NCBI GenBank assembly: GCA_951406725.2
Contig: OX597815.1
Location: 70,680,001-70,744,000, forward strand
Reading direction: 5' to 3'
From: Octopus vulgaris
Taxonomy: Eukaryota
DNA length: 64,000 nt
A program made the position numbers and the translations under genes. Below, piece after piece: positions 4,256-63,048 of this stretch. The notes under the pieces were generated by a model. It was not told the DNA's origin. It worked only from the letters and a program-made list of their open reading frames with translations, and did not search any database. Position 1 is the stretch's first letter, and each line of letters opens with the position of its first letter.

Positions 4256-6111
4256 TTCTAACACGACACCACCACTCATGACTGTCCTTAAAGAAACAGT
4301 GGGCTGTGGGCCGATTGGTCACAAGTTTAAGATTTGGCATTCAAATGTAATTTTCTATTTTGAAAAATTGCTTCAGAGAAAGTTACAGAGGCAACTGGGT
4401 CTTATCTGATAATTGATCGTTCGACAGTAGTCAAATCTCATCGGTCACTCACAAATCACCGAGTTTGACATCCATTTTACACGCTCGACTTCACGGTTGT
4501 CTCCCTTCTATAAACAAGCTTCATCTCAAAACCGATTATTTTCGCGGGTGAACAAGAACCGGTAGACTTATTTCGAACTCCTGATGATAAAATCGAAAAG
4601 TACAATCGAGTATCCCTAATGTATGTTTCAATATACTGTATTTAATGACATTAAAACGCATCTTTCCCCATCCACCAAAAATCACCTGGTGTCCTAAATG
4701 CAAAACTTAACACCTATATTACGTGCTTCGAAACAGAAGTCCCACACACCATGGAAAAGAAAAAGCCACAGAAGGACCAGAAGCAAATTTATTAGGTCTG
4801 GTTTAAGAATCCATATTCCCGGATAGGAATAATGAAATAAAATTAAGGAAACAATAAAAACCTTTTCTCTTCCTCATTGAGATAAGGAACTTAAACTGTA
4901 CATAAATTTTCGGTCAGATACTATAAATAACAGCGAAGACAATAATTAAAAAAAAAAAAAGAAAACACTTGGGTTTAATCTGAAAATCTCAGCTTTATAT
5001 ATCTTTATAAAAACTATTCTTTTTTAATCAAGCAAGGGAGCTTGAGAAATTCTCATTAGTCCAGGTGGATTAATGATCAAAATGAATATTTACAGACGAT
5101 GTTTGAAATGTTAATGATTGGGGGCAGTAAACTAGCGATGGAGGTGTGCTTGATAAAAAGGGTTATAGCAAGACAATTCCTTAATTAGATATCTACAAGT
5201 GCTTTGTATTAAATGTTTTAGGTCTTTCTTGTGCATGTTCGTTTAAAATTATTTCTCTTGATATTCCAGTCAACGTAAACAAGTACTGATGGTCTGCCCC
5301 GACATCTGAAGTTCCTTGGCGATGACCCTCATCGTTATTTTGAACATGGATGAATTCCAATGTCCTTTTCGTGTCCGAGCGTTTAAAGCACTACTGCCAA
5401 CGGCCTTAATTGCATTCAAACTTTGTAAATCGCCGTACTCTGCATGTATAGTAATGACTGCTTATCTACTTAATTGTTAGCAAACTCGGAGAAAATAGAA
5501 ATGGTGTTTGATGAATGGCATGACAAAAATTATCTATTTCAGCTAAGTAGATATTTACAAGACTTCTGTAATAATAACATTGTAAAAGCTTTTCGTAAGT
5601 TCGTTCATATTCCCCCCGACACAGTCCTATTCCTTTTGTCAATAATCAGAGATTGTAACGGGTGATTTGGTTTTAATTCGAAACAACGCAAGAACTGAAA
5701 CGACCACAAATCCGTCTGAATTGAACTTGCATCTCTTCTTCGATCTACCAATGTTTATAAATAGAGCTCTCGATATGCATTAAACGAGTGATTGCACTAG
5801 ACATAAATACAGAGGCGATTCACCTTGGTTATTCAATACTACGGCGACAATATTAATTTCCTTTCCATTCCAGATAACAAAAATTCTTTCGGAAACTCGA
5901 TATTTGGTATTTGTTTGAATTATCTCAAAAAAATTGTACAATATAGATTGGTCATCAGTCAAGGTAATAGATGGTTGTTATAATGTAATTTGGATATTTT
6001 CAAGACTAGTCTGTTTGATATTTTCCTAAAATACATACCATATTAAACGATATTCCACATAAATATAAAATCCTAAATACACAAATTTTATTACCTAAAT
6101 GCACACCTCGC

Positions 6112-6199
6112 TTACTTTTTCTTCGTTCCGGCCTTCTTCGTAACGAGCAACTTTACTTCCATCGGATCCTTGGGCGGGTACCTCGATGTTGTCTCTCAT
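6112..6199 (-). pseudogene. Highly reduced histone H1 remnant (locus 4)
   Basis: ATG AGA GAC...CCC GCC resembles MSDATAPA/MTETAAPA; 3' end AAGGCCGGAACGAAGAAAAAGTAAGCGA matches locus 3 end AAGGCCGCAGCAAAGAAAAAGTAAACGA (VTKKAGTKKK* in a shifted frame). Confidence 0.6.
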
Positions 6200-6730
6200 A
6201 GCGGCTCTCTTTGCCTTCGTTAAGCGGTTTTCTTTAGCTGCTACGTTTTGTTCCTTGCAGTCCTTGTACGCGTAGTCGCGAAGGTCCTCACTCAAGGCCA
6301 GCTTCATGGTAGCAACTCCAACACCCATTTCTCTCGCCAAAGCCCGAATTCCCTTGCTAGGATCTTCTTTCACCTTGTCCCGCAGCTGTTGAATGAATTC
6401 GGACGTGCGCACGGTGTCAGAACGCCTGGCGTGTCCTTTCCTGCTGGCCACTGCTTCGTAGTCACCATTACAGCTCTCCATGTCACGTCGTACAGTCTTT
6501 ACAGTGTTCAGCGAGCACTGTGCAGTAGTCATGATGTTGGCATTTTCATACCCAGCGCGAATCATCATCATACAGGTAACTCTTTTCCAATATTCAGATG
6601 GCTTCCAGTCTGCCATGTCAAATAACTTTTTAACTATCACTTCAACGGAGTTGACAATTCATCAAGATGTTCCTGAAAAAGGAGACATGAAGAAGAAAAA
6701 AGTCATTAAAATTAGCCCAAGCACCTTGCA
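6200..6730 (-). mobile_element. Tc1/mariner-superfamily (maT/rosa-like) transposon 5' part encoding only the N-terminal HTH DNA-binding region
   Basis: ORF from ATG 6616: RSDTVRTSEF...KEDPSKGIRALAREMGVGVATMKLALSEDL; TIR-like CAAGGTGCTTGGGCTAA at ~6728; catalytic domain absent. Confidence 0.8.
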
Positions 6731-6849: not shown

Positions 6850-7307
6850 TATTTATACATTGCGTGCGGACGTAGTAGTAATCACATCAACACTGCGACC
6901 ACCTACAAATATGGCCACCGAACTACAACATCTGTGCTTTTTGTCTATATGTTTTTAGTGTAGAGTACTTGGATTTCTTAACAAAACCTAACCAATTTAC
7001 TGACAGCCTAAGCAAAAGAGGCTTTGCTACATTTTATCGTAAGAATTTTGTTTCAGAGACGCTTCTGATTTATAATATTTCCATAAATAGGTTGTGTTGT
7101 CTCCTCCAAAAAATCAGAGTACGTTACAATCAAGACTAGATTTTAAGCCTTTCACTTGGTGTTCACGATTTTTTCTGTCAAAATTTTAAAGAATAGTAAT
7201 ATCTGATATATTTTTTTGTAAATTCATTCTCCTGGACGACAATGCATGTCAGATGTGAAGTGTCTGATTGCCCTAACAAACACAATTTTTACAAGCCGAT
7301 CCGCCAT
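6850..7307 (-). promoter_or_regulatory. H1-type promoter (locus 4)
   Basis: ATGGCGG 7307; TGTGTTT 7284-7278; AAGCACA 6939-6933; GCCAT ending 6911; CTACGTCCG 6875; TATAAATA 6857-6850; 6740-7390 is a diverged reverse complement of 60605-61250. Confidence 0.8.
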
Positions 7308-7389: not shown

Positions 7390-9787
7390 GCTAAGAGACA
7401 GACTTACTTAGCCAGAAGGGAAGCAGATAAGAAAAATTTTGCCAATGTTCTGCGTCGTGAGGATCAGAGACTTGAAGTGCTTCGTATTGCAAGACAGTGT
7501 GTGAGGGAGAATCGTGATGTCACAGGAGAGAAATGTGTCTGCATGGATGATGGCTCACTTGCATTTAATGATGTAGCAAAGAGGGAGACTTGGAGATGCC
7601 TCTATGAAAGGTTGCTAAATGAAGAGAATGAATGGGAGAAAGAGAGTCTGCCAAATGTCGACCCAGCAGAGGGACCAGCTATTTGAATTGACAGTACCTT
7701 GGTAGATAAAGCAATAAAGGGTATGAAGACGGGGAAAGCCCCCGGACCATCAGGAATCACTGCTGAGATGCTTAAAATATCTGGCGGCGTAGGCTATTGT
7801 CCAGTCATCCGTATAGTTAACCAGGTGATACAAGGAGTCATACCCAATGACTGGTGTAGTAGCACCATAGACAACTGCTACATAGGTAAAGGTGACACAT
7901 TAGATAGGAATAATTAAAGAGGTATCAAATTGTTGTATCAGGTGATTAAGGTCACGGAGAGGGTCATAGCCCAACTAATTAGGATGAGAGTTAGTTTAGA
8001 CGAGATGCAGTTTGGGTTGGTGCCAAGGAGAAATACCACTGATGCTATATTTCTGGTAAGGCAGCTGCAGGAGAAATTCCTAGCCAAACATAAACCTTTG
8101 TACTTTGACCTTCGTTGAGAAAGCCTTTGACAGAGTCTCCCGATCCCTTATCTGGTGGTCAATGTGGAAACTAGGGATAGATGAGTGGTTGGTGAGAGCT
8201 GTTCAAGCCATGTATAAGGATGCTGTCAGTAAGGTGAGGGTTGGCAACGAGTATAGTGAAGAATTCCAGGAAGAAGTAGGGGTTCACCAAGGATCAGTCC
8301 TCAGCCCCCTCTTATTCATCATAGTCTTCCAGGCAATAACAGAGGAATTCAAGACAGGCTGCCCCTGGGAGCTCCTCTATGCTGATGGCCTTACTATAAT
8401 AGCTGAGTCACTACCAGAAATAGAGAAGTTTCAGGAGTGGAAGCATGGTCTAGAATCGAAGGATAATGGCGTCAATCTAGCAAAAACTAAGTAGGAAGGC
8501 AGACAAATCACAGACCCTTTCAGGTAGATGGCCCTGTTCGATCTGTGGAAAAGGTGTAGGTAGAAACTCCATAAGATGTATCTGGTGTAAGCTATGGACA
8601 TGTAAGAGGTGCAGCACTATCAAAGGATGGTTAACTGGGAAGATAGTTTTTGTGTGTGGTAGATGCATAGAGGCAATAAACACTAAATATGTACAGAAAC
8701 AGATTTCATCACATGCCAGGGGGTAAAACTAGAAGTAGTTGATAGCTTTTGTTACCTAGGTGATTAAGTCAGTAGCAGATGTAGATACTCTGAGAGCATA
8801 GCTGCTAGAATAAGAATAACCTGAGCAAAGTTCAGGGAGCTCCTACCTCTGCTGGTAACAAAGGGCCTCTCACTTAGAGTGAAAGGTAGACTGTATGATG
8901 CATGTGTGTGAACAGCCATGCTACATGACAGTGAAACATGGGCTGTGACTGTTGAGGACATGTATAGGTTTGAAAGAAATGAAGCTAGTATACTCTACTG
9001 GATGTGTAATGTCAGTGTGCATATACGACAGAGTGTACGTGCCCTGAGAGAAAAGTTGGACATAAGAAGCATCCAATGTGGTGTGCAAGAGAGATGACTG
9101 CGCTGGTATAGGTCATATGTTGCATATGGATGAGGGCAGCTGTGTGAAGAAGTGTTACACCTTAACAGTGGAAGGAAGCTGTGGAAGAGGTAGACTCAAG
9201 AAGACTTGGGATGAGGTGGTGAAGCACAACCTTCGAACGTTGGGCCTCATAGAAACAATGACAGGAGCTGGGGCCGGTGCCCTCTGGCTGGCTCCCATTT
9301 CAATGGCACGTCAAAGGCACCATCCGAATGTGGTCGAAGCCAGGTCCGCCTGATTGGCTACTGTGGCAGTCACACGTGAAAACACCAACCGATCATGACC
9401 GATGTGAGTACTCCGCCGAGTGACTCCTGTGCCGGTGGCACTTAAAAAGCACCATCTGAACGTGTTCGTTGTCAGGTCCTCCTTACTGGCTCCGGTGCCA
9501 GTGATACGTAAAAAGCACCAACCAATTATGACCGATGCCAGTACCCTCATACTGATTCCTGTGCCGTAATCGTTGCCAGGCCTGCCTTACTGGCTCCTGT
9601 GCCGGTGGTACGTAAAAAGCACCCACTACACTCTCGGGGTGGTTGGTGTTAGGAAGGGCATCCAGCTGTAGAAACTCTGCCAGACCAGACTGGAGCCTGG
9701 TGCAGCCGCTGGCTCTCCAGACCTCAGTCAAACCGTCCAACCCATCCACCATGGAAAACAGACGTTAATCGATGATGATGATGATGT
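7390..9787 (+). mobile_element. 5'-truncated RTE-clade LINE (RT pseudogene, 3'UTR and (GAT)n tail)
   Basis: KAPGPSG, QFG..P...TTDAIF, EKAFDRV, GVHQGSVLSPLLF, LLYADG, GRGRLKKTW across several broken frames. Confidence 0.93.
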
Positions 9788-12350: not shown

Positions 12351-12812
12351 ATGGCGGCAGTGTGAAGCAAAACTGTGTTTCTAGTTGTAAACAGTGCTAT
12401 TATAGTTGTTTTATTTTTCCTCGATTCTTTCAAATATTCGACTTAATATATAGCAGTATGAATATTCTTTCGTATCTAAAGTTTAGAAGACATAACATTA
12501 ATATATATTCTTGTAATTTAAAGTTTCATTGAAGCCTATCGACAACCTAACACAGTGACAACATCTTATATTAATGATAATAATATTGGCAAGATACTCG
12601 TAACAGATGTTTAATCTTCCTGAAACATTAACTCGAAGTCCATAATTTAATTCCATGGCCTTAGAAAGTTAAGTTTTTATTTGTAAACCAGACAGCAAAG
12701 CAGTTAAAGCACACCGAAGAAACACATAAGATGTTGACAAGCTGCCATTTTGACACATAGAGAGCATGAGCGTTCTGTGTTTACTGCTACGTCGGCGCGT
12801 TGTGTATTTATA
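12351..12812 (+). promoter_or_regulatory. H1 promoter (locus 1): YY1-like site, TG box, H1/AC box, TATA
   Basis: ATGGCGG 12351; TGTGTTTCT 12374; AAGAAACACA 12717-12726 (canonical H1 box); GCCATTTT 12744; CTACGTCGGCGCG 12787; TATTTATA 12805. Confidence 0.85.
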
Positions 12813-12911
12813 GCAAGTGTGTTATGGTGTGACGTATTATTATTCAACTCGTCCTATCAATTATCACGCAGATTTTTGTGTTCACCGTCGACTTTACCGA
12901 CCAAAACCAAT

Positions 12912-13454
12912 ATGACTGAAACTGCAGCACCCGCTCCTGCTACCCCTAAGGTGAAGAAAGCTGCCAAAGCTAAGAAACCTTCAACTCACCCGGGTTACAG
13001 CGAAATGGTTAAACAAGCTATTACAAGTTTGGGCGATAAGAACGGTTCCTCTCGTCAGGCCATTGTCAAATACGTTCTGAAGAATTTCAAACTGTCGGCT
13101 AATGAGAAAGCTGCGACTATCCAGACTAAGATGGCTTTGAGGAGAGGTGTTGCTAGTGGAATGTTGAAACAATCGAAAGGAACTGGAGCTTCAGGGTCAT
13201 TTAAAATCGGTCCTAAGAAAGAGGGGAAAAAAGTGAAAGCCAAGAAATCCACAAAACCCAAAGTCAAACCAAAAGCTGCCAAGAAGCCAGCAAAGAAGCC
13301 TGCCGGCAAAAGCAAGAAAGTTAAGAAACCTCGGACTGCCAAACCTCAAAAGAGCAAGTCTCCGAAGAAAGCTGCTGCCAAGAAAGTTACTAAACCAAAG
13401 AAGGTTACCAAACCCAAAAAGACTAAAAGTTCTAAAAAGGCCGCTAAGAAGTAA
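12912..13454 (+). CDS. H1: Linker histone H1 (180 aa; H1-delta/H1.0-like variant), intronless
   Basis: MTETAAPAPA start; winged helix HPGYSEMV..AI..L....GSSRQAI.KY...KQSKGTGASGSFKI; Lys/Ala/Pro-rich tail. Confidence 0.97.
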   Translation: MTETAAPAPATPKVKKAAKAKKPSTHPGYSEMVKQAITSLGDKNGSSRQAIVKYVLKNFKLSANEKAATIQTKMALRRGVASGMLKQSKGTGASGSFKIGPKKEGKKVKAKKSTKPKVKPKAAKKPAKKPAGKSKKVKKPRTAKPQKSKSPKKAAAKKVTKPKKVTKPKKTKSSKKAAKK

Positions 13455-15029
13455 AAACTTTATCAACAAAATCATGCTCATTACATCCACCCCCATTTCA
13501 ATATTTATTAAGAGACAATGTAAATATTAATGTACAGACATTTTAAGGAGGGTTTTCCTCCTGCATTCTATGGTAATTTCATCCCGCAATTAAGTCCTTG
13601 ATTTGTATTATTCACATCGGGGTCTTCGACCACGACATCATTCTGTAAATATAATCATATAAAATGTTTTCTTTTTTATCTTAAACGGTTTTCTGGTTAT
13701 TTTTTGTCCTTTTCATTTATTTTCACCGTGCATTAGGCGCGAAATCGATTTTTGTATTACAGCTCTTTGTTTGGGTTTATATTTGTTTTTCAGGTTCCGC
13801 GCTTTGGGGCATCTGCCCGTCTTTTATAATGCACCGTTTTCGATAAAAAAAAATTGCCATCTTACTAACCGAAAAACTTCATGAAAGTGGTTGGTGCCCG
13901 ATTATCGCGCAAATTAAGATTGTTATCAGCGTAAAGTTTTGCTATCGAGATTTTTTTTTTCAGCGGTATTGACACTTAGTAATATTTTTAAGATGTTAGA
14001 GTGCAGTTTTTATCAATAAATTATTGCTGTTCCAGTACATATTCCAAACTCCTAATTGAAGCTACAATGGAAGGCCACCCCTGCCACTATGGAAACATTA
14101 AAAGGAATGCGCATATTGTATTGATTCTTCCAGAAAACTGAACGCTGTGATACGTCAATTATATTGTAAAACACTACTCTAGTGTCTCTGATTTCGAAGA
14201 AATTTTCACCCGTGGATGGTAAGAGAAGATGCTTCGAATCCGGTTTTTACGCACGCAGAAATAAAAATAGGAACGCACGTAAATCTCGACCGGAGACGGT
14301 TGCCTGTCGAAAAGAAAAACTGGTTTTTAGAACAACGTATTACTTGGTGAAATTAGCCTCCACCCTCCGAGAATTCTGAAATTTTTTTGTCATCCGTTTT
14401 TACACGCTCGGTTTTCCAACATTGATCATTTGTCATCGCTTTCCTGAAATTGACTTCTCCCCATGTCCTACAGGTTCTTTCCACTGGAACCTGTCCCGTG
14501 TTAAAACATTACACAACCAATAGAGCGTGTTTACATTTCCTTTCTAGTACTTCGGTATTCGCTACCGTATATAAACAAGCAACATAGTCTGCCCTTCCCT
14601 CCAAAAAGAAACAACCGTTGACAGCTAGTAAACAAACTTGCGAGCCTCCCGCGTATTTTTTCTTTTTGTAGTGGTGTGGATTATGATTTGATGTTGGTGC
14701 TATTTCGGATAAACTTGAATTCTGAAAAAGTATCAAATTTCCCTCCATGCATTTATTTAAGATGTGATTTTATCCAATAGAAGCTTTAGAAGGCGACTGT
14801 TTCCGTGGGAGCGGCATACACGGAACATTTACGAGTTGTGATCTAGAAATTGCAGTTAAATCTTAGTTGTACCGAGCTCATGAAAACAGCTCCCAGAGGT
14901 CGATATGTACATCCTCGGTGGTTACTATATGAAAGTGCAGTGTAGATAACGATACTGATGTTCTTTCTTCCCTCTAACAAGCCTTGTGAAACAATATTAC
15001 CATTGGGAGAAAGTTTATTAGTATCGATC

Positions 15030-20113: not shown

Positions 20114-22042
20114 ATATATATTATATATAGAGATATATATATAGAAGAGATACAGCTAATCTCTATATAGAATACTTAGTAGTGCTCAAAAGGTTTAAAC
20201 TTGAACAAGTAGAGGAGTAAATGTAAGGATAAGCAAGTTGGGCTTATCTTTACTGATGATAGTAGCTACTCACATGACATATCTTAATGCACTTGTAAAA
20301 GATAGTGGAGGACTATGATTGCATGTATGGCTCTATGGGTAATAAGTTAGCTTTGTAACCACATTGTCCCAAGTTTGATCACTTGAGAGTGGAACAGAGT
20401 GTGAACATTTCCAAGAAATATTTCAAATGTGGTTATAGGTCTAGGGAGTCACATTCGTTATAAAATTTATTGCAAAAAACAAAATGGTCCATTTAATTCT
20501 ATCATGTTTTTTTTTCCATCCTTTTTTCATATACACTCTGTAAAATCACGGGCATGCTCTAACTTCTGGCTCACAGGCATGCTGTCTTCTCTTCCTACTT
20601 TTTCAACTATTTCTGTAATAGCCTCTACTCTTCAAAAGTAGCTGAGATGATATCATCTTCACTCAAGCATTCTCAGCCCACTTCTCTCTCCTCCTCCCAT
20701 CCTCCTTGTATCCACTCCCCGCTCCACAGATCTCACACTAATCACTATACTCAGTCCATTCTTCCCAGAACATCAACTGCTGCTGGAATTCCTTTCTAAT
20801 GTCTTTCCCACTGTCGTTGATTTACAAAAGTTCAAGAAGAATATTAATGGCATCAATTTCACCAGTTTTCAAGGAACTACAAACAACATGGACAGTGCTC
20901 TCTCATCCAGAACTGGCAGAAGGAAAGAAGAAAAAAAGCTAGCATTTTCATCATAAGTAATTTTACCCTGAAACATTTTTCTATTCATGATTCTGTCCAC
21001 ATATATGTGTGTGTGTGTATGAATTATACCACTTTTCAGTTCCCCACATAACCCACCCCTTACATTGCTTGTAAAGTGTGAGTATTCATGTAACTCTTTT
21101 ACAAAGAATCTGCTCATATTTTATACATTTCTACTCTTTCTCTGAGTATAAAGTCCTCCCCTGCCTATTCAGGAACCGCACTTGTGCAAGCTGCATAGTG
21201 ACCCCACTAGTGCTGGTGCCATGCAGAAAGCACATAATACACACTGTACACATTAGGAAGGATATCCAGCCTTAGAAACCATGCTAAACAGAGTTTGATA
21301 CATTCCTTGAACGCACCGAATTCTGTCAAACCATTTAACCTATGCCAACAAGGAACATAATCGTTAAATAGTGATCATAATGATGAATTCTGGTCATTGA
21401 AAATGGGTTGAAATTTCTTTTTAGAACAATTACAATCACTATTTCTACCCTTTAATTATATTTTGCTTATCTTCAATTAGCTTTGCTTTCTTAATATATT
21501 TTTACTTAACATTTCTTACCATTTCTGTTAACCAAAATTTTTCTTTTTGCATGAGAAGTAGTCACATATTTTAAGCTGGGTTTTGAACCAAGTTTACTTG
21601 CAGGGGTTTTCTCCAAGATAAGATCATCAGTGGTAAATATATATACTTGTATGTACACACACATATATATTTGCAAACACACACACACACACACATATAT
21701 ATATAAATGATATATACATACATATATGTACATACCTACATATATATGTATATATACATATACAGGTTTCAGCATGTGTTGTCTTAAGGAGGGAAATGGG
21801 CAGAAAGATAGATTTCCTTTCATCACGTGTCAGCGAGGAAAGAGTCAAGGAGGAAGAGTGAGAGAGAGAGGAGAAGAATAAGGAAGGGAGGGAGAGAAAA
21901 GCAGAAAGGATAAAGAACAAGAGAGGGAGAGAGATAGACAGAGAAGAGATAGTTGTGGTAGAAGAGTACGCATCGTAATTATTAAGATAAGGATGTATAT
22001 ACATATATATGTAGGTATGAACATATATGTGTGTATATATGC

Positions 22043-26059: not shown

Positions 26060-26163
26060 CACACACACATATATATATATATATACACATATACATGTAT
26101 ATAAATACATATGTATATGTATAGATATACATATATATATACACATATATATATGTATATTTA

Positions 26164-26224
<61 letters not shown>

Positions 26225-26343
26225 ATTTATAAGTGTAGGTGGTATACGAGTGGGTATATATTTATAAAAAGATGTATATATATATATTTACATATATATA
26301 TATATATATATATATACATATGTATATATATTTATATTTTTAC

Positions 26344-26375
<32 letters not shown>

Positions 26376-26452
26376 TTACACACACATATATATATATATA
26401 CACACACATACACACGCTTACATACTTACATATCGACTGATAGATTAATAGC

Positions 26453-26985: not shown

Positions 26986-27450
26986 ATGGCGGCAGCGGGA
27001 AGCTAAACTGTGTTTCTAGTTGTAAACAGTGCTATTATAGTTGTTTTATTTTTCCTCGATTCTTTCAAATATTCGACTTAATATATAGCAGTATGAATAT
27101 ACTTTCATATCTAAAGATTAGAAGACATAACATTAATATATATTCTTGTAATTTAAAGTTTCATTGAAGCCTATCGACAACCTAACACAGTGACAACATC
27201 TTATATTAATGATAATAATATTGGTAAGATACTCGTAACAGATGTTTAATCTTCCTGAAACATTAACCCGAAGTCCATAATTTAGTTCCACGGCATTAAA
27301 AAGTTAAGTTTTTATTTGTAAACCAGGCAGCAAAGCAGTTAAAGCACACCGAAGAAACACATACGATGTCAACAAGCTGCCATTTTGACACAAATCAAGA
27401 GCATGAGTTTTGTGTGTTTACTACTACGTCGGCGCGTTGTGTATTTATAG
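26986..27450 (+). promoter_or_regulatory. H1 promoter (locus 2), near-identical to locus 1
   Basis: ATGGCGG 26986; TGTGTTT 27009; AAACACA 27355-27361; GCCAT ending 27383; TATTTATA ~27442. Confidence 0.85.
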
Positions 27451-27470: not shown

Positions 27471-27600
27471 GGCGAGCTGGCAGAAACGTTAGCATGCCGG
27501 GCGAAATGCCTAGCGGTGTTTCGTCTGCCGTCACGTTTTGAGATCAAATTCCGCCGAGGTCGACTTTGCCTTTCATCCTTTCGGATGTGGCAATAAAGAA
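27471..27600 (+). mobile_element. Internally deleted family-2 SINE at the presumed TSS of locus 2
   Basis: Interrupts GTGTGACG|TA.TATTATTCA, which is continuous in locus 1. Confidence 0.75.
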
Positions 27601-28191: not shown

Positions 28192-28347
28192 ATGACTGAG
28201 ACGAAGGGGAAGAAAACTGCCAAAGAGAAGAAAGTTTCGACACATCGGGGGAAGAAGCCTAGGGTTGTTAAACCTCAAAAGAGCAAGTCTCTAAAGAAGG
28301 TTACCAAACCTCAAAGGGCTAAAGCTACAAGAAAGGCCACCATGTAG
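28192..28347 (+). pseudogene. Globular-domain-less H1 derivative (locus 2), 51-aa ORF; pseudogene or small basic protein
   Basis: MTETKGKKTAKEKKVSTHRG|KKPRVVKPQKSKSLKKVTKP aligns to the N- and C-terminal tails of locus 1; stop codon supplied by an LTR. Confidence 0.8.
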
Positions 28348-34471: not shown

Positions 34472-36486
<2,015 letters not shown>

Positions 36487-43640: not shown

Positions 43641-43908
43641 TATGTATGTATCTATGTATGTATGAGTGTGTGTGTATTTATATGCATGCATATATGTATG
43701 TATAAAAAAGAGATCTCTTCAGTTTGGGTCAGATTTTTTAATTATTTTATTTCCAACTAAAGTTACAAAGAGTGAACCAAACGCCGAGATTTTGGTGCAT
43801 AGCGTTAATCACATACATATACGTATGCACATATATATATTTACACATACATATATATATACATACATATATATATATATATATATACATACATATATAT
43901 ATATATAT

Positions 43909-43949
<41 letters not shown>

Positions 43950-43994
43950 CGTATGCACATATATATATATACATACATACACACACACATATAT

Positions 43995-44048
<54 letters not shown>

Positions 44049-44140
44049 TCACATACGTACATATATATATATACATATACTCATACAGTCAGTAAGACAG
44101 AAAAGAGTGGATACTTAAAAGAGGTATTTTACTTGTGAAT

Positions 44141-60676: not shown

Positions 60677-61132
60677 ATGGCGGATTGGTATCTAAAAATT
60701 GTGTTTGTTGGTGCAATCGGACCCCCTGCATCTGATTTGCATTGTCATCTAGGAGAATGAATTTACAAAACACTATATTATTTATCCTTTAAATTTTTGA
60801 TAAAAAATATCTTGAACGGGCAAATGAAAGACTTAAAATGTAGTCTTGATCGTAGCCTATATTGATTTTTCAGTGTAGACAACACAAGATGTTTGTGGTG
60901 ATATTATGTGCCAGAACTTATCTCTGAAACAGAATTTCTGCGATAAAATGTAGCCACATCTTTTCTTTGGGTTTTTCGGTGAACTGGTTAGGTTTTGTAA
61001 TGAAGTTACAGTAGTTTACACTACAAATATTGAAACAAAAAACACAGTTGTTATATTTCGGCTGCCATATTTGTAGTTGTTTGTCGCACTGTTGATGTGA
61101 TTTCTACTACGTCCGTGCGCAATCTATAAATA
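60677..61132 (+). promoter_or_regulatory. H1-type promoter (locus 3)
   Basis: ATGGCGG 60677; TGTGTTT 60700; AAACACA 61040-61046; GCCAT ending 61068; CTACGTCCG 61107; TATAAATA 61125. Confidence 0.82.
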
Positions 61133-61458
61133 AGCTTGTAACGTTAGGAAGTGCAACTTGAGTTAGTCACTTGTCGTTCGTTTTTGCGAACATTCCGTCG
61201 AGCTTCGTAACCAGAATCTTCGTTCATACTGAAGGATTTTCATTTTTTTTTTTTTCATATTTACGAGGTGCATTCCGGAAGTTTTGAAACTTTTAGGAGA
61301 GGTAGTTGTAGCTATCATAAATTATTGTAATTTTAGTAATACATTTAAGTTGACTTGCGAATGTTTTTTTTATAATTCCAGACTGTGCAAAACGGCTGTA
61401 ACATCCCTTTGAAAACACCCCACTAAACACAGCTTGTTGCGGCTGACAAGTTTGTAGA

Positions 61459-62523
61459 ATGCAGTCAGGACGCGAAGACAATTTGGAAGTTCGCTATGCA
61501 ATAAAGTTTTGTGTTAAACTGGGCAAAAACGCTAGAGAAACTTATGAAATGCTCCAGGCTGCTTATGGATTAACTTGTATGTGTCGATCATCTGTTTTTC
61601 GCTGGCACAAGAGGTTTAAGGACGGTAGAGCGGAGGTAAGAGACGATGAGAGGTGTGGAAGGGAGAAAGACGTCAGAACATCAGAACTAGTGGAGAAAAT
61701 TCGCAATTTTCTGCATGAAGATAGTCGTGTGTCTATAAAGACAATAAGCATACAATTTGGAGTTGGTGTGGCAACTGTACACAGAATTATTCATGAAGAT
61801 TTGAAAATGCGCAAAATTTGTGCTAAGTTTGTTCCTAGTGTGCTCAGTGATGAACAAAAAGAAAGACGCGTTGGTGACAGCAAGGAGATGGTTGAACTCA
61901 TTACCTCCAATCCAAGAGTACTTGAGTCTCTGGTGACATGTGACGAAAGCTGGATCTACTGTTATGATCCAGAGACCGAGGGACAGAGTGCCCAAAGTAA
62001 TCTTGGCTCCCCCACACCGAAGAAGGCCAAGCAAAGCAAGTACACCAGGAAGCTCATGATGATCCCCTTTTTCGACAGCAAAGGCATAATCTACACCCAC
62101 TGGGTTCCCTTTGGCCAGAGCGTCACCAAAGAGTATTTTGTGGAGGTTTTGAGGGAGTTCGGGGAAAGATTTCCCTACAAAAGGCCAGAGCTCTACCAAT
62201 CGGGTCGGTGGCATCTACACCAGGACAATACACCAGTCCACAATTCCATCCTGGTAACCAACTACTTGACAGAGATGGGCATTAAAACTGTCCCTCAACC
62301 GCCCTGCAGTCCAGATCTTTCTCCCTGTGACTTTTGGTTTTTCTCCAGGCTGAAAGAGAAACTCAAAGGTAGACGTTTTGATGACATTGAGAAGATAAAG
62401 GAGGCTGTGACAAAGGTCCTGGACACTTTCACTTTGGAGGACTTTCACGGAGCTTTCACCAAGTGGCTAGAGCGCTACAACAAGTGCATTGAAGTGAAAG
62501 GATCCTACTTTGAAGGAGAATAA
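61459..62523 (+). CDS. Mariner transposase, uninterrupted 354-aa ORF, DD34D
   Basis: HTH N-terminus; FVPSVL linker; TCDESW, HQDNTPVH, CSPDLSPCDFW with exactly 34 residues between the last two Asp. Confidence 0.9.
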   Translation: MQSGREDNLEVRYAIKFCVKLGKNARETYEMLQAAYGLTCMCRSSVFRWHKRFKDGRAEVRDDERCGREKDVRTSELVEKIRNFLHEDSRVSIKTISIQFGVGVATVHRIIHEDLKMRKICAKFVPSVLSDEQKERRVGDSKEMVELITSNPRVLESLVTCDESWIYCYDPETEGQSAQSNLGSPTPKKAKQSKYTRKLMMIPFFDSKGIIYTHWVPFGQSVTKEYFVEVLREFGERFPYKRPELYQSGRWHLHQDNTPVHNSILVTNYLTEMGIKTVPQPPCSPDLSPCDFWFFSRLKEKLKGRRFDDIEKIKEAVTKVLDTFTLEDFHGAFTKWLERYNKCIEVKGSYFEGE

Positions 62524-62557
62524 TTTTGTACCTCTTTGAAACTAATAACTATCTCTT

Positions 62558-62775
62558 ATTTCTTTATTGCCCACAAGGGGCTAAACATAGAGGGGACAGA
62601 CAAAGGGATTAAGTCAATTACAACGACCCCAGTGCGTAACTGGTACTTATTTAATCGACCCAGAAAGGATGAAAGGCTAAGTCGACCTCGGCGGAATTTG
62701 AACTCAGAACGTTAAGACGGACGAAATACCGCTCAGCATTTCGCCCGGCGTGCTAACGTTTCTGCCAGCTCGCCG
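62558..62775 (-). mobile_element. Family-2 SINE nested in the mariner 3' region
   Basis: 18-bp TSD AACTAATAAC(T/C)ATCTCTT at 62540 and 62781. Confidence 0.85.
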
Positions 62776-62850
62776 TCTTCAACTAATAACCATCTCTTCT
62801 GCAAAGGTCTCAAAACTCTTGAATGCACCTGGTACATTGATTGAACAATC

Positions 62851-63048
62851 ATGTCTGACGCCACTGCACCCGCTTCTGTTGGTCCTTTTAAGGTCACTGC
62901 TGGTAGAAAAGGAAAAAAACTAAGAAGGTACACGTTAAACCAAAAACTGAAGGAAGCTAAGAAAAGTGGTACCAAGAAAGCAGCCACGAAACTTATAGCC
63001 CCAAAGGAAGCCGCCAAAACACCCAAGGCCGCAGCAAAGAAAAAGTAA
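62851..63048 (+). pseudogene. Globular-domain-less H1 derivative (locus 3), 65-aa ORF
   Basis: MSDATAPA joined to SVGPFKV (equivalent to ASGSFKI), then a K/A/P tail ending TPKAAAKKK*. Confidence 0.8.

Follow-up and report, generated by a model that had tools for sequence, protein, structure and literature searches.

The window analyzed here, a 64,000-nucleotide stretch of the Octopus vulgaris genome (contig OX597815.1, positions 70,680,001 to 70,744,000), contains four loci in which a short motif and its inverted copy face each other across some 350 bp. This raises the question of what these loci are and what keeps the two motifs at such a distance. The four sites are likely copies of the octopus linker histone H1 promoter that have kept the geometry of a TG box, an AC box, an ACGTC(C/G)G box, and in most cases TATA, probably with a CRAMP1-type reader and with optional outer YY1-like sites.

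Promoter elements at the four loci

The pattern ATGGC-N18-TGTGTTT occurs at exactly four sites in the window, 12351, 26986, and 60677 on the forward strand and 7307 on the reverse strand, as the original prediction stated. Only 0.04 sites are expected, and a count of four was reached in 0 of 100 shuffles. The pattern AAACACA-N17-GCCAT occurs at 12720, 27355, and 61040 (0.00 expected); locus 4 has AAGCACA, one mismatch away from AAACACA, and a GCCAT ending 22 bp later. The elements are located as follows.

12351 to 12357, forward strand: distal YY1-like site ATGGCGG of locus 1, 23 bp (start to start) ahead of the TG box
12374 to 12380, forward strand: TG box TGTGTTT of locus 1, an inverted copy of the AC box
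12381 to 12719, forward strand: spacer of locus 1, 339 bp
12720 to 12726, forward strand: AC (H1) box AAACACA of locus 1, about 114 bp ahead of the start of the high-depth RNA contig
12744 to 12748, forward strand: proximal YY1-like core GCCAT (GCCATTTT) of locus 1, 17 bp past the AC box
12776 to 12782, forward strand: third TG-like box TGTGTTT of locus 1, immediately ahead of the H4-like box
12787 to 12799, forward strand: H4-box-like element CTACGTCGGCGCG of locus 1; its TACGTC starts 68 bp past the AC box start and 17 bp ahead of TATA
12805 to 12812, forward strand: TATA box TATTTATA of locus 1; the RNA contig begins 29 bp downstream, at 12834
12834 to 13685, forward strand: expressed H1 transcription unit of locus 1, with the coding sequence at 12912-13454 (180 aa) and poly(A) past about 13685
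26986 to 27449, forward strand: locus 2 promoter (type A), with ATGGC at 26986, TG box 27009-27015, AC box 27355-27361, and GCCAT 27379-27383
27425 to 27449, forward strand: locus 2 promoter, continued, with TACGTC 27425-27430 and TATA 27442-27449
60677 to 61132, forward strand: locus 3 promoter (type B), with ATGGC at 60677, TG box 60700-60706, AC box 61040-61046, and GCCAT 61064-61068
61108 to 61132, forward strand: locus 3 promoter, continued, with TACGTC 61108-61113 and TATA 61125-61132
6850 to 7307, reverse strand: locus 4 promoter (type B), with ATGGC 7307-7303, TG box 7284-7278, degenerate AC box AAGCACA 6939-6933, and GCCAT 6915-6911
6850 to 6874, reverse strand: locus 4 promoter, continued, with TACGTC 6874-6869 and TATA 6857-6850

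The distances predicted from the window were reproduced. The outer TG-to-AC spans are 353, 353, 347, and 352 bp in loci 1 to 4, and CTAC lies 18 bp ahead of TATA in all four loci (17 bp when measured from the start of TACGTC). From the end of the AC box to the start of TATA there are 79 bp in loci 1 and 3, 81 bp in locus 2, and 76 bp in locus 4. Between the boxes, the two promoter types of the window are indeed unalignable, with an ungapped identity of 0.31-0.38 versus a shuffle mean of 0.29-0.30 (sd 0.024). Within types, spacer identity is 97% for loci 1 and 2, and 77% for loci 3 and 4 when gaps are allowed. Because each of these pairs is a recent duplication, only two of the four observations count as independent.

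An intact H1 reading frame is retained at locus 1 alone (12912-13454; Pfam Linker_histone, E 8e-27). Loci 2, 3, and 4 have SINE or mariner-type insertions in their 5' UTRs: at locus 2, a SINE-like insertion from about 27472 is followed by a decayed mariner, and the H1 remnant at 28192 has no globular domain; at locus 4, a transposon-like insertion lies within the 5' UTR. The spacer of locus 3 is 6 bp shorter and differs from an intact copy by five indel events. Loci 2-4 are decaying copies whose spacers are starting to collect indels.

Transcription of the locus 1 gene is documented by RNA contigs over 12834-13685 with depth in the thousands, and its AC box stands about 110 bp ahead of the transcript start. 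Loose ends of A22 at 13685 (runs X9 and X14, two organisms) demonstrate that the locus 1 message is polyadenylated. A histone 3' stem-loop was sought in the window and at nine H1 loci, with no Rfam hit at the gathering score and no match to a stem-loop pattern. The two marks of replication-dependent histone genes, a 3' stem-loop and a message without poly(A), are thus both missing from locus 1. The 64-kb window contains no core histone reading frame; the H1 genes form a cluster by themselves.

A fixed geometry specific to H1 genes

Six more H1 promoters were found beyond the window in the same genome. The promoter set of 11 comprised the four window loci and further H1 promoters, including L031, L035, L003, and those of types C, D, and F. 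Five anciently diverged H1 types are represented, whose proteins are 45-54% identical. In all five, TGTGTT[TA] is followed by AAACACA at 344-346 bp, start to start; the same range holds for all six intact genes with an AC box, and the four disrupted copies show 340-346 bp. The outer span is 353 bp in both type A loci of the window, L031, L035, and type F; 352 bp in locus 4, L003, and type D; 351 bp in type C; and 347 bp in locus 3. The AC box is exactly AAACACA in 9 of the 11 promoters, the exceptions being locus 4 (AAGCACA) and L003 (TAACACA).

The proximal part of the promoter is similarly regular. The ACGTC(C/G)G box is located 69-70 bp past the AC box in five of five types and is followed 15 bp later by TATA in four of them; type C has no TATA. 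The AC box and TACGTC are 68 bp apart in 6 of the 11 promoters and 67 bp apart in type D, and TACGTC precedes TATA by 17 bp in all nine TATA-bearing promoters. The H4-like box takes two forms, TACGTCCGCGC (types B, C, and E) and TACGTCGG(C/T)GC (types A, D, and F). The third TG-like box is TGTGTTT in types A and C and TGTGATT in type B, and is degenerate in types D and F. Within a gene, the extended TG and AC boxes resemble each other, with TGTGTTTCT found twice in type A and TGTGTTACC and TGTGTTTACC in type F. The TG/AC pair is absent from three of the nine intact H1-like genes: L032 carries the H4-like box and TATA but nothing more, and not a single element is present in L036 or L037.

Genome-wide, the proximal pattern AAACACA-N58-62-CTACGTCSG has 12 matches. 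Eight of them are H1 loci, all eight with a TG box at 340-346 bp, and the remaining four have neither a TG box nor TATA. The distal pattern has 27 matches, seven of which lie inside the H1 cluster; the offsets at two loci are +165 and +386. Of the 20 matches outside H1 genes, not one is accompanied by an AC box at about 346 bp or by ACGTCSG, and we rejected the idea that the inverted module arose from a transposon or MITE. The TG/AC geometry is specific to H1 loci genome-wide.

Four of these 20 matches belong to a small repeat family unrelated to H1.

Similar geometry in metagenome H1 loci

In the metagenome set, 29 distinct H1 promoter clusters had 600 bp or more of upstream sequence, and 10 of these contained AACACA at -280..-90. 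TGTG[TC]T[TA] is located 342-367 bp upstream in 7 of these 10 clusters versus 3 of 113 other 38-bp windows; the lineage counts may be inflated, as a single organism may have contributed several paralogues (L066, L106, and L107 have a record prefix in common). CGTCCG lies 69-72 bp past the AC box in 7 of the 15 loci examined, and (A/G)CGTCCGC is present in 9 of the 15. L102/L108 combine an exact TGTGTT at 288 bp with the variant TGTGCTT at 345 bp, and L059, L113, and L047 have the AC box yet no TG-like box at 335-372 bp. Similar TG/AC geometry thus recurs in metagenome H1 loci.

We also considered whether the distances step by helical turns. Steps of about 10.5 separate the values 346, 356-357, and 367 bp; however, 342-344 bp does not fit this series and the lineages are too few, so this arithmetic was discarded.

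Length and composition of the spacer

One explanation of the kept distance would be a passive relic of gene duplication, in which promoters are copied, indels are rare, and the spacing has no function. All promoters indeed go back to a single ancestor, the pairs 1/2 and 3/4 are products of recent duplication, and the absence of indels between the intact type-B copies L031 and L035, which differ at 39 of 339 positions, is not significant when taken alone. However, the spacers of the five types are saturated with substitutions (between-type identity 0.30-0.39 versus a shuffle mean of 0.30, sd 0.024, that is, at the random level), and their lengths stay within 2 bp, 337-339 bp. The disrupted copies have gained five, one, and one indel events at a divergence of only 16-20%. 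When neutral evolution was simulated at the indel rate of these copies, five lineages remained within 2 bp with P = 0.004 to 0.0002. The lengths of the 5' UTRs vary freely among the same H1 types, and a similar distance is found in the unrelated metagenome loci. A functionless relic is therefore very improbable, and a TG box at a constant distance of about 350 bp from an inverted AC box is a real, selected feature of octopus H1 promoters. Footprinting with relatives B, C, and D (more than 97% identical) has no power here: the boxes are free of substitutions and the spacer has only a few, a difference that is not significant.

The spacer sequence is not without common properties. Its GC content drops to 0.15-0.21 at +60..+150, and A/T (WW) dinucleotides recur across the whole spacer with a period of 10-12 bp phased to the TG box. 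The strongest signal of the octopus set is a coherent WW signal at 10.2-11.8 bp with a ratio of 9.9, and the metagenome set, analyzed by itself, has the same top signal (9.5); for all 12 sequences together, the ratio is 10.5, and 40 resampled control sets reached at most 6.2, although the sequences are few and the rotation null is liberal, control sets reaching 9.2 over all periods. The kept length and the helical-period A/T pattern fit a structural role for the spacer and do not distinguish a loop from wrapped nucleosomes.

One such role, which we regard as possible, is that function resides in the spacer itself, whose sequence would encode a platform positioning one or two nucleosomes. The TG and AC boxes would mark its borders and, without being brought together, act separately: the distal box would be an upstream enhancer or boundary, and the proximal box part of the core promoter. 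The AT-rich trough and the phased helical-period signal, common to the five types, agree with this scenario, as does the centre-to-centre distance of 346 bp, close to 2 x 173 bp. However, the evidence for periodicity is modest, and the scenario leaves unexplained why the borders are inverted copies of the same word and why, in a given gene, the two extended boxes are similar.

YY1-like sites outside the boxes

ATGGCG/GCCAT is the YY1 core, and the YY1/Pho consensus has a GCCAT core with the flanks AAnATGGCG(G). This consensus is fitted by AAAATGGCGG(A/C), found in types B and C, and by (G/A)TATGGCGGC, found in type A. ATGGC is found outside the TG box, at 14-24 bp, in 7 of 12 lineage representatives. 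These include four of the five octopus types, at 20, 23, 23, and 24 bp (type B, 23 bp; type C, 20 bp; type F, 24 bp, as ATGGCTG), and three of the seven metagenome representatives, all seven chosen for having the box pair, at 14-21 bp (ATGGCGG in L052, L066, and L107). GCCAT outside the AC box is less frequent, 4 of 12, with two of the five octopus types (A and B) and two of the seven metagenome representatives. A YY1-like core was found in 0 of 12 representatives in each of two inner-side control windows. From the outer counts and the inner controls, the YY1-like sites are recurrent, always outward-facing, and facultative. They are not required, since type D has neither ATGGC nor GCCAT.

The original prediction described the promoter as a pair of inverted composites, each made of a YY1 site and a box. 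If these, rather than the boxes alone, were the functional units, with a rigid spacing of 22-23 bp, YY1 dimers or YY1-bound cofactors could loop the DNA. Both halves, ATGGCGG-N16-TGTGTTT and AAACACA-N17-GCCAT, are present in types A and B, the cores always occupy the outer side in mirrored orientation, and the metagenome examples of ATGGCGG repeat the distal half. In human, YY1 ChIP-seq signal maps to all H1 promoters (bioRxiv 10.1101/2020.09.30.320572). However, the proximal GCCAT is absent from types C (TACAT), D, and F and from five of the seven metagenome representatives; the distal ATGGC is absent from type D, L097, and L106 and has the opposite orientation in L115. The distance from site to box ranges over 14-24 bp between lineages, even types A and B show a difference of 1 bp between their two halves, and the box-to-box distance is far better kept than either distance to a YY1-like site. 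We consider mirror-image composites as the functional units rather unlikely. What stands of the prediction is the recurrence of outward ATGGC/GCCAT; what does not is their obligatory presence and rigid spacing across lineages, and the invariant core consists of the two boxes and their mutual distance.

Comparison with known H1 promoters

Vertebrate H1 promoters have an AC box (AAACACA) and an inverted TG box, also called UCE/CH1UE, about 350 bp upstream. The octopus promoters have the same two words in the same inverted orientation and with the same H1 specificity, and their position is also alike: the AC box precedes the transcript start by about 110 bp, and the TG box lies upstream of it by a few hundred bp. 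The vertebrate-type geometry at a fixed distance of about 350 bp, which had been proposed for this mollusc from the window, is thus borne out by the five anciently diverged types and by its specificity to H1 loci. In main-type vertebrate H1 genes, a CCAAT box (H1/CCAAT) lies between a GC-rich element and TATA. In contrast, no octopus type has a CCAAT between the AC box and TATA; the ACGTC(C/G)G box is found at about -50 instead, and the octopus H1 message is polyadenylated and has no 3' stem-loop. The HiNF-P (MIZF) H4-box consensus is (A)ACGTCCG(C), and by this consensus the ACGTCCG box is a candidate H4 box of the HiNF-P/HBP1 type. In molluscs, the orphon H1 genes of Mytilus lie outside the core-histone repeats and have promoters with an H1 box and an H4 box; the octopus H1 genes, clustered alone and bearing an H1 box and an H4-like box, are similar.

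With CTACGTC(C/G)G in place of CCAAT, the octopus promoter resembles the H1.0/H5 subtype, whose promoters contain UCE, H1 box, an H4 box in the position of CCAAT, and TATA (PMC6027317). With the octopus box read as H4-site-II-like, the set of elements and their order match, and the messages are polyadenylated in both. The difference is that H1.0/H5 is one specialised variant, whereas this promoter type serves six of the nine intact octopus H1 genes.

In human H1 genes, the H1-box and the TG-box are conserved in sequence and position (bioRxiv 10.1101/2020.09.30.320572), and CRAMP1 is described as the dedicated transcription factor of these genes in papers of 2025-2026 (PMC12240685, PMC12979687). 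For the recognised sequence, which they describe as not established, these papers refer to no more than the long-known H1-box and upstream motifs. The Mol Cell 2025 paper states that direct binding of the motifs by the SANT domain, and the sequence that this domain reads, are not established. GON4L interacts with CRAMP1 and contains a region that binds YY1, and CRAMP1 is said to have arisen with bilaterians (PMC12979687). The human CRAMP1-GON4L-NPAT system (Cramped/Mute in Drosophila) thus offers a candidate reader of the boxes, the SANT/Myb domain of CRAMP1, and a candidate bridge to YY1, GON4L (PMC12240685, PMC12979687); the octopus parallel would hold by analogy. In the literature searched, we found no vertebrate description of a paralogue distance kept within 1 bp over a random spacer, of A/T helical phasing, or of outward YY1-like sites (the original promoter papers of 1985-1998 lay outside this search).

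A possible mechanism and its implications

Every factor assigned here to an octopus element is inferred by analogy with these systems. The CRAMP1/Cramped orthologue would bind both boxes through its SANT/Myb domain, and the outward ATGGCGG/GCCAT sites would bind YY1/Pho. YY1 could recruit GON4L/Mute, a binder of both YY1 and CRAMP1; such bridging would explain the short fixed distance between box and site within a gene type. The spacer, constrained in length and phase, would bring the boxes together, by wrapped nucleosomes or a protein-held loop, and the ACGTCCG box would be an H4 box of the HiNF-P/MIZF type coupling the promoter to NPAT. In its complete form, this scenario is a molecular caliper that predates the split from the vertebrate lineage: two inverted boxes for one reader, CRAMP1/Cramped, about 33 helical turns apart, with a spacer free in sequence and fixed in length and helical phase, and with YY1/Pho sites docking GON4L/Mute. 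We propose it tentatively.

The five octopus H1 paralogue types have randomised all but the two 7-bp boxes, the H4-like box, TATA (in four of five types), and the distances between them. Because everything else is randomised, the retained elements single out what the machinery needs. A constraint of 1-2 bp over about 340 bp is not predicted by a simple model of two independent sites. The YY1-GON4L-CRAMP1 connection, by analogy, may provide a rationale for the recurrent outward YY1-like sites. The caliper, if true, would account for the way in which the histone locus body tells H1 genes apart from others.

Spacing of promoter elements in the window

The original prediction described a fixed spacing between ATGGC and the TG box (TGTGTTT) in four H1 promoter copies, loci 1 to 4. 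The string ATGGC-N18-TGTGTTT occurs in the 64-kb window at precisely these four sites, 12351, 26986 and 60677 on the forward strand and 7307 on the reverse strand, with 0.04 matches expected and 0/100 shuffles reaching four. The companion claim, an AC box (AAACACA, the inverted TG box) with GCCAT ending 22 bp further on in all four loci, is exact in loci 1–3, where AAACACA-N17-GCCAT yields three window matches (12720, 27355 and 61040; 0.00 expected). In locus 4 the box reads AAGCACA (6939-6933) and the distance to the GCCAT end is kept. The remaining distances were reproduced by measurement: outer TG-to-AC spans of 353, 353, 347 and 352 bp in loci 1–4, 18 bp from CTAC to TATA in all four, and 79 bp from AC end to TATA in loci 1 and 3. 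As had also been stated, the spacers (the DNA between the TG and AC boxes) of the two promoter types in the window are not alignable; their ungapped identity of 0.31–0.38 vs. a shuffle mean of 0.29–0.30 (sd 0.024) is that of random sequence. Spacer identity is 97% between loci 1 and 2 and, in a gapped alignment, 77% between loci 3 and 4, so the window alone provides two independent observations, not four. The observation is confirmed, and the case for it is much stronger once paralogues and outside sequences are added.

H1 promoter types in the octopus genome

A globular-domain search of the 2.8-Gb assembly (G000), in which the window occupies C2:70,680,001-70,744,000, found 10 H1-like genes, whose promoters define five types with the box pair.

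Octopus H1 promoter types with the box pair
Type A: loci 1 and 2
Type B: loci 3 and 4, L003, and the intact genes L031 and L035
Type C: L030, on the same contig, 250 kb upstream
Type D: L034, on another contig
Type F: L033, on another contig

The H1 proteins of the five types are only 45–54% identical, and the duplications are therefore old. From TG start to AC start there are 346 bp in types A, B and F, 345 bp in D, and 344 bp in C. TACGTC lies 68 bp from AC start (67 bp in type D) and 17 bp from TATA in every promoter that has a TATA; type C is without one. Between types the spacers, 337–339 bp long, are substitution-saturated, with an identity of 0.30–0.39 vs. 0.30 for random sequence. The box pair is absent from three H1-like genes: L032 retains just CTACTACGTCCGCG plus TATAAATA, and the promoters of L036 and L037 contain no recognisable element. 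L029 is a broken H1 gene. In L037 (G000:C21:3483893), the 700 bp upstream of the divergent H1-like ORF hold tandem units of ~100 bp, each with TGTGTTG; this gene of 116 aa, without the usual promoter, stands directly behind the array.

Genome-wide, the layout is specific to H1 genes. The proximal pattern AAACACA-N58-62-CTACGTCSG has 12 matches genome-wide, eight of them H1 loci. All eight carry a TG box at 340–346 bp, and the four non-H1 matches have neither TG box nor TATA. The distal pattern ATGGCGG-N16-TGTGTTT has 27 matches genome-wide vs. 15 for the reversed control, seven of the 27 lying in the H1 cluster. An origin of the box module from a mobile element finds no support, since the proximal part, sought at 20 non-H1 distal matches, occurs at 0/20. 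Four loci (L011, L012, L016 and L017, on contigs C4, C5, C8 and C9 of G000) form a repeat family with a common ATGGCGGAGGTATTGTTT(T/C)(C/T)AGTTGTGTTT; its fit to the distal pattern is a chance one, with neither an AC box nor an H4-like box (the ACGTC(C/G)G-type element) downstream.

Selection on spacer length

Between the two intact type-B genes, L031 and L035, the spacer shows 39 differences over 339 positions and not a single indel. Three disrupted type-B copies, 16–20% diverged, have 5, 1 and 1 indel events and spacers of 333, 338 and 338 bp. In a neutral simulation with the indel-to-substitution ratio of these disrupted copies, five lineages remained within 2 bp of one another with a probability of 0.004 at 6.5 events per lineage and of about 0.0002 at 26; given the saturation, more events than were simulated have probably occurred. 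The 5'-UTR lengths vary freely among the same genes. From the low simulated probability, the saturated spacers and the free variation of the 5' UTRs, we conclude that stabilising selection in working H1 genes acts on the length of the spacer and not on the sequence.

H1 loci from metagenomes

A metagenome collection scanned with an alignment of octopus H1 proteins yielded 485 stretches encoding relatives, the best 80 of which were kept; 42 of these had at least 600 bp upstream and formed 29 distinct promoter clusters. Within these clusters, drawn from the best 80 of 485 and possibly including paralogues from one organism, AACACA occurs at -280 to -90 from the ATG in 10 of 29, and TGTG[TC]T[TA] lies upstream of it in 7 of the 10, at 342, 343, 343, 344, 345, 356/365 and 367 bp. 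The background for this word is 3 of 113 other 38-bp windows in the same promoters. The original prediction is right about the TG/AC geometry, which is present in all five octopus types and, in similar form, in these seven clusters. CGTCCG, found 70 bp past the AC box in octopus (69 bp in type D), follows it at 69–72 bp in 7 of 15 metagenome loci examined and at 55–57 bp in two, and is absent in six. The TG–AC distance is sharp within a genome and can differ by as much as about 25 bp from one lineage to another. The distances shared by octopus types and metagenome loci indicate that the whole layout, TG – about 346 – AC – about 70 – CGTCCGC – about 15 – TATA, is widespread.

YY1-like sites

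ATGGC and GCCAT were counted in 12 lineage representatives, namely the five octopus types and seven metagenome loci picked for having the box pair (in L074, one of the seven, the available sequence reaches just 7 bp upstream of the TG box).

YY1-like sites in the 12 representatives
ATGGC outside the TG box: 7/12 (types A 23, B 23, C 20 and F 24 bp; L052 14, L066 21 and L107 21 bp)
GCCAT, in opposite orientation, outside the TG box: 1/12 (L115)
GCCAT outside the AC box, 4–17 bp after it: 4/12 (types A and B, L106, L052)
Inner-side control, 40 bp after the TG box: 0/12
Inner-side control, 40 bp before the AC box: 0/12

The outer-side counts, set against zero in both inner windows, argue that these sites are real outward-facing companions of the boxes. 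The ATGGC sites mostly have the extended form AAnATGGCGG, which presumably fits the YY1 consensus. The description of the promoter as paired inverted YY1+box composites holds in that outward sites recur, and was overstated otherwise. Type D lacks such sites altogether, so they are dispensable; a constant distance from site to box is seen only inside one type; and complete mirror symmetry is confined to types A and B, where the halves still differ by 1 bp (N18 vs. N17).

Spacer composition

An AT-rich trough recurs in all five types, where the GC content falls to 0.15–0.21 at +60 to +150 past the TG box (0.375 in the window). A periodic component of WW dinucleotides extends over the entire spacer and agrees in phase across the five types (8–47 degrees at 11.2 bp, -62 to +2 degrees at 10.5 bp). 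The seven metagenome spacers, which lie outside the discovery set, have similar phases: -52 to +26 degrees at 10.5 bp and, at 11.2 bp, 7–25 degrees in 5/7 and 77–82 degrees in 2/7. When periods between 5 and 20 bp were scanned for coherence, the strongest signal lay at 11.2–11.4 bp in octopus (ratio 9.9) and 10.2–10.4 bp in the metagenome loci (9.5), all 12 together giving a ratio of 10.5. Control sets of 12 random TG-anchored window segments (40 resamples of 44 sites) reached at most 6.2 in the 10–12 bp band and 9.2 over all periods, the latter value making the rotation null liberal. The phased periodicity is suggestive, replicated once and not proven.

Disrupted copies and expression

Of the four loci, locus 1 alone has an intact H1 gene behind its promoter.

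Features of the four loci
12912-13454: H1 gene of locus 1, 180 aa; Pfam Linker_histone, E 8e-27
27472-27585, +: SINE-like insertion in locus 2, placed exactly at the apparent start of the locus 1 transcripts; a decayed mariner, then the H1 remnant, lie downstream
28192-28347, +: H1 remnant of locus 2, a 51-codon lysine-rich ORF with N- and C-terminal tails and no globular domain
61262-62834, +: mariner-type element of locus 3, inserted at TA in the H1 5' UTR
61459-62523, +: its intact transposase ORF, 354 aa; Pfam DDE_3, Transposase_1, HTH_48
about 62560-62790: SINE-like piece nested near the mariner 3' end
about 62851-63048, +: H1 remnant of locus 3, tail-only, about 65 lysine-rich codons, no globular domain
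Locus 4: 5' UTR insertion at a place equivalent to that in the other disrupted loci
6095-6616, -: 173-aa ORF within this insertion, without a Pfam match; the element begins with a mariner-like terminal sequence

The short 5' UTR was hit by insertions in all three disrupted copies in the window, and 27472-27585 (+) and about 62650-62775 (opposite orientation) are copies of one SINE-like repeat. The same loss of the globular domain is seen behind promoters of two different types, in loci 2 and 3; these remnants could be pseudogenes or encode tail-only proteins. Elsewhere in the window, ORFs resemble, by eye, a retroelement integrase core (99-686, +) and a reverse-transcriptase fragment (8162-8494, +), and long (TA/TG)-type microsatellites produce YIYI-type pseudo-ORFs (21500-22000, 26100-26440, 35060-35990 and 43750-44120).

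Locus 1 is a highly expressed, polyadenylated H1 gene, as follows from contig depths and A-runs. In RNA-like public runs, 12834-13685 is covered by contigs whose depth ranges from hundreds to thousands, against about 3 over the promoter region; in runs of two organisms, 13685 is the end point of the last contig, which continues into 22 A's. The mRNA has a 3' UTR of 231 nt (13455-13685, +) with a poly(A) end. The contig start at 12834, 29 bp past TATTTATA, is a weak hint of the transcription start, as contigs cannot prove one; in one run a contig extends up to 12560. No histone stem-loop was matched by Rfam at gathering score in the window and nine H1 loci or by a pattern search, and a permissive scan of 13400-14400 gave only two sub-threshold matches, both irrelevant.

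Relation to known H1 promoters

Vertebrate H1 promoters have elements at about -100 and -450, and the octopus layout corresponds to this H1-specific promoter. It resembles the H1.0/H5 subtype, in which an H4-like box replaces CCAAT and the mRNA has a poly(A) tail.

The boxes are most likely read by the predicted orthologue of CRAMP1 (Cramped in Drosophila). For human CRAMP1, direct binding and the exact recognised sequence are left open in one study (PMC12240685). Another (PMC12979687) places the origin of CRAMP1 with bilaterians and describes GON4L (Mute in Drosophila) as binding CRAMP1 through PAH domains and having a separate YY1-binding region. Every human H1 promoter is reported to carry YY1 ChIP-seq signal (bioRxiv 10.1101/2020.09.30.320572). 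Given these findings, it is reasonable to hypothesise a YY1-GON4L-CRAMP1 assembly, which would sit on the module formed by a YY1 site and its box; the idea is ours and is found in none of the cited papers.

In the literature searched, which leaves key older papers outside, we found no description of a near-invariant distance over randomised DNA, of phased A/T periodicity in the H1 spacer, or of outward-facing YY1-like sites at H1 boxes. The octopus promoter belongs to a known promoter kind, and its fixed spacer length, together with the helical phase, points to a need for the two inverted boxes to face one shared complex, either across wrapped nucleosomes or across a loop.
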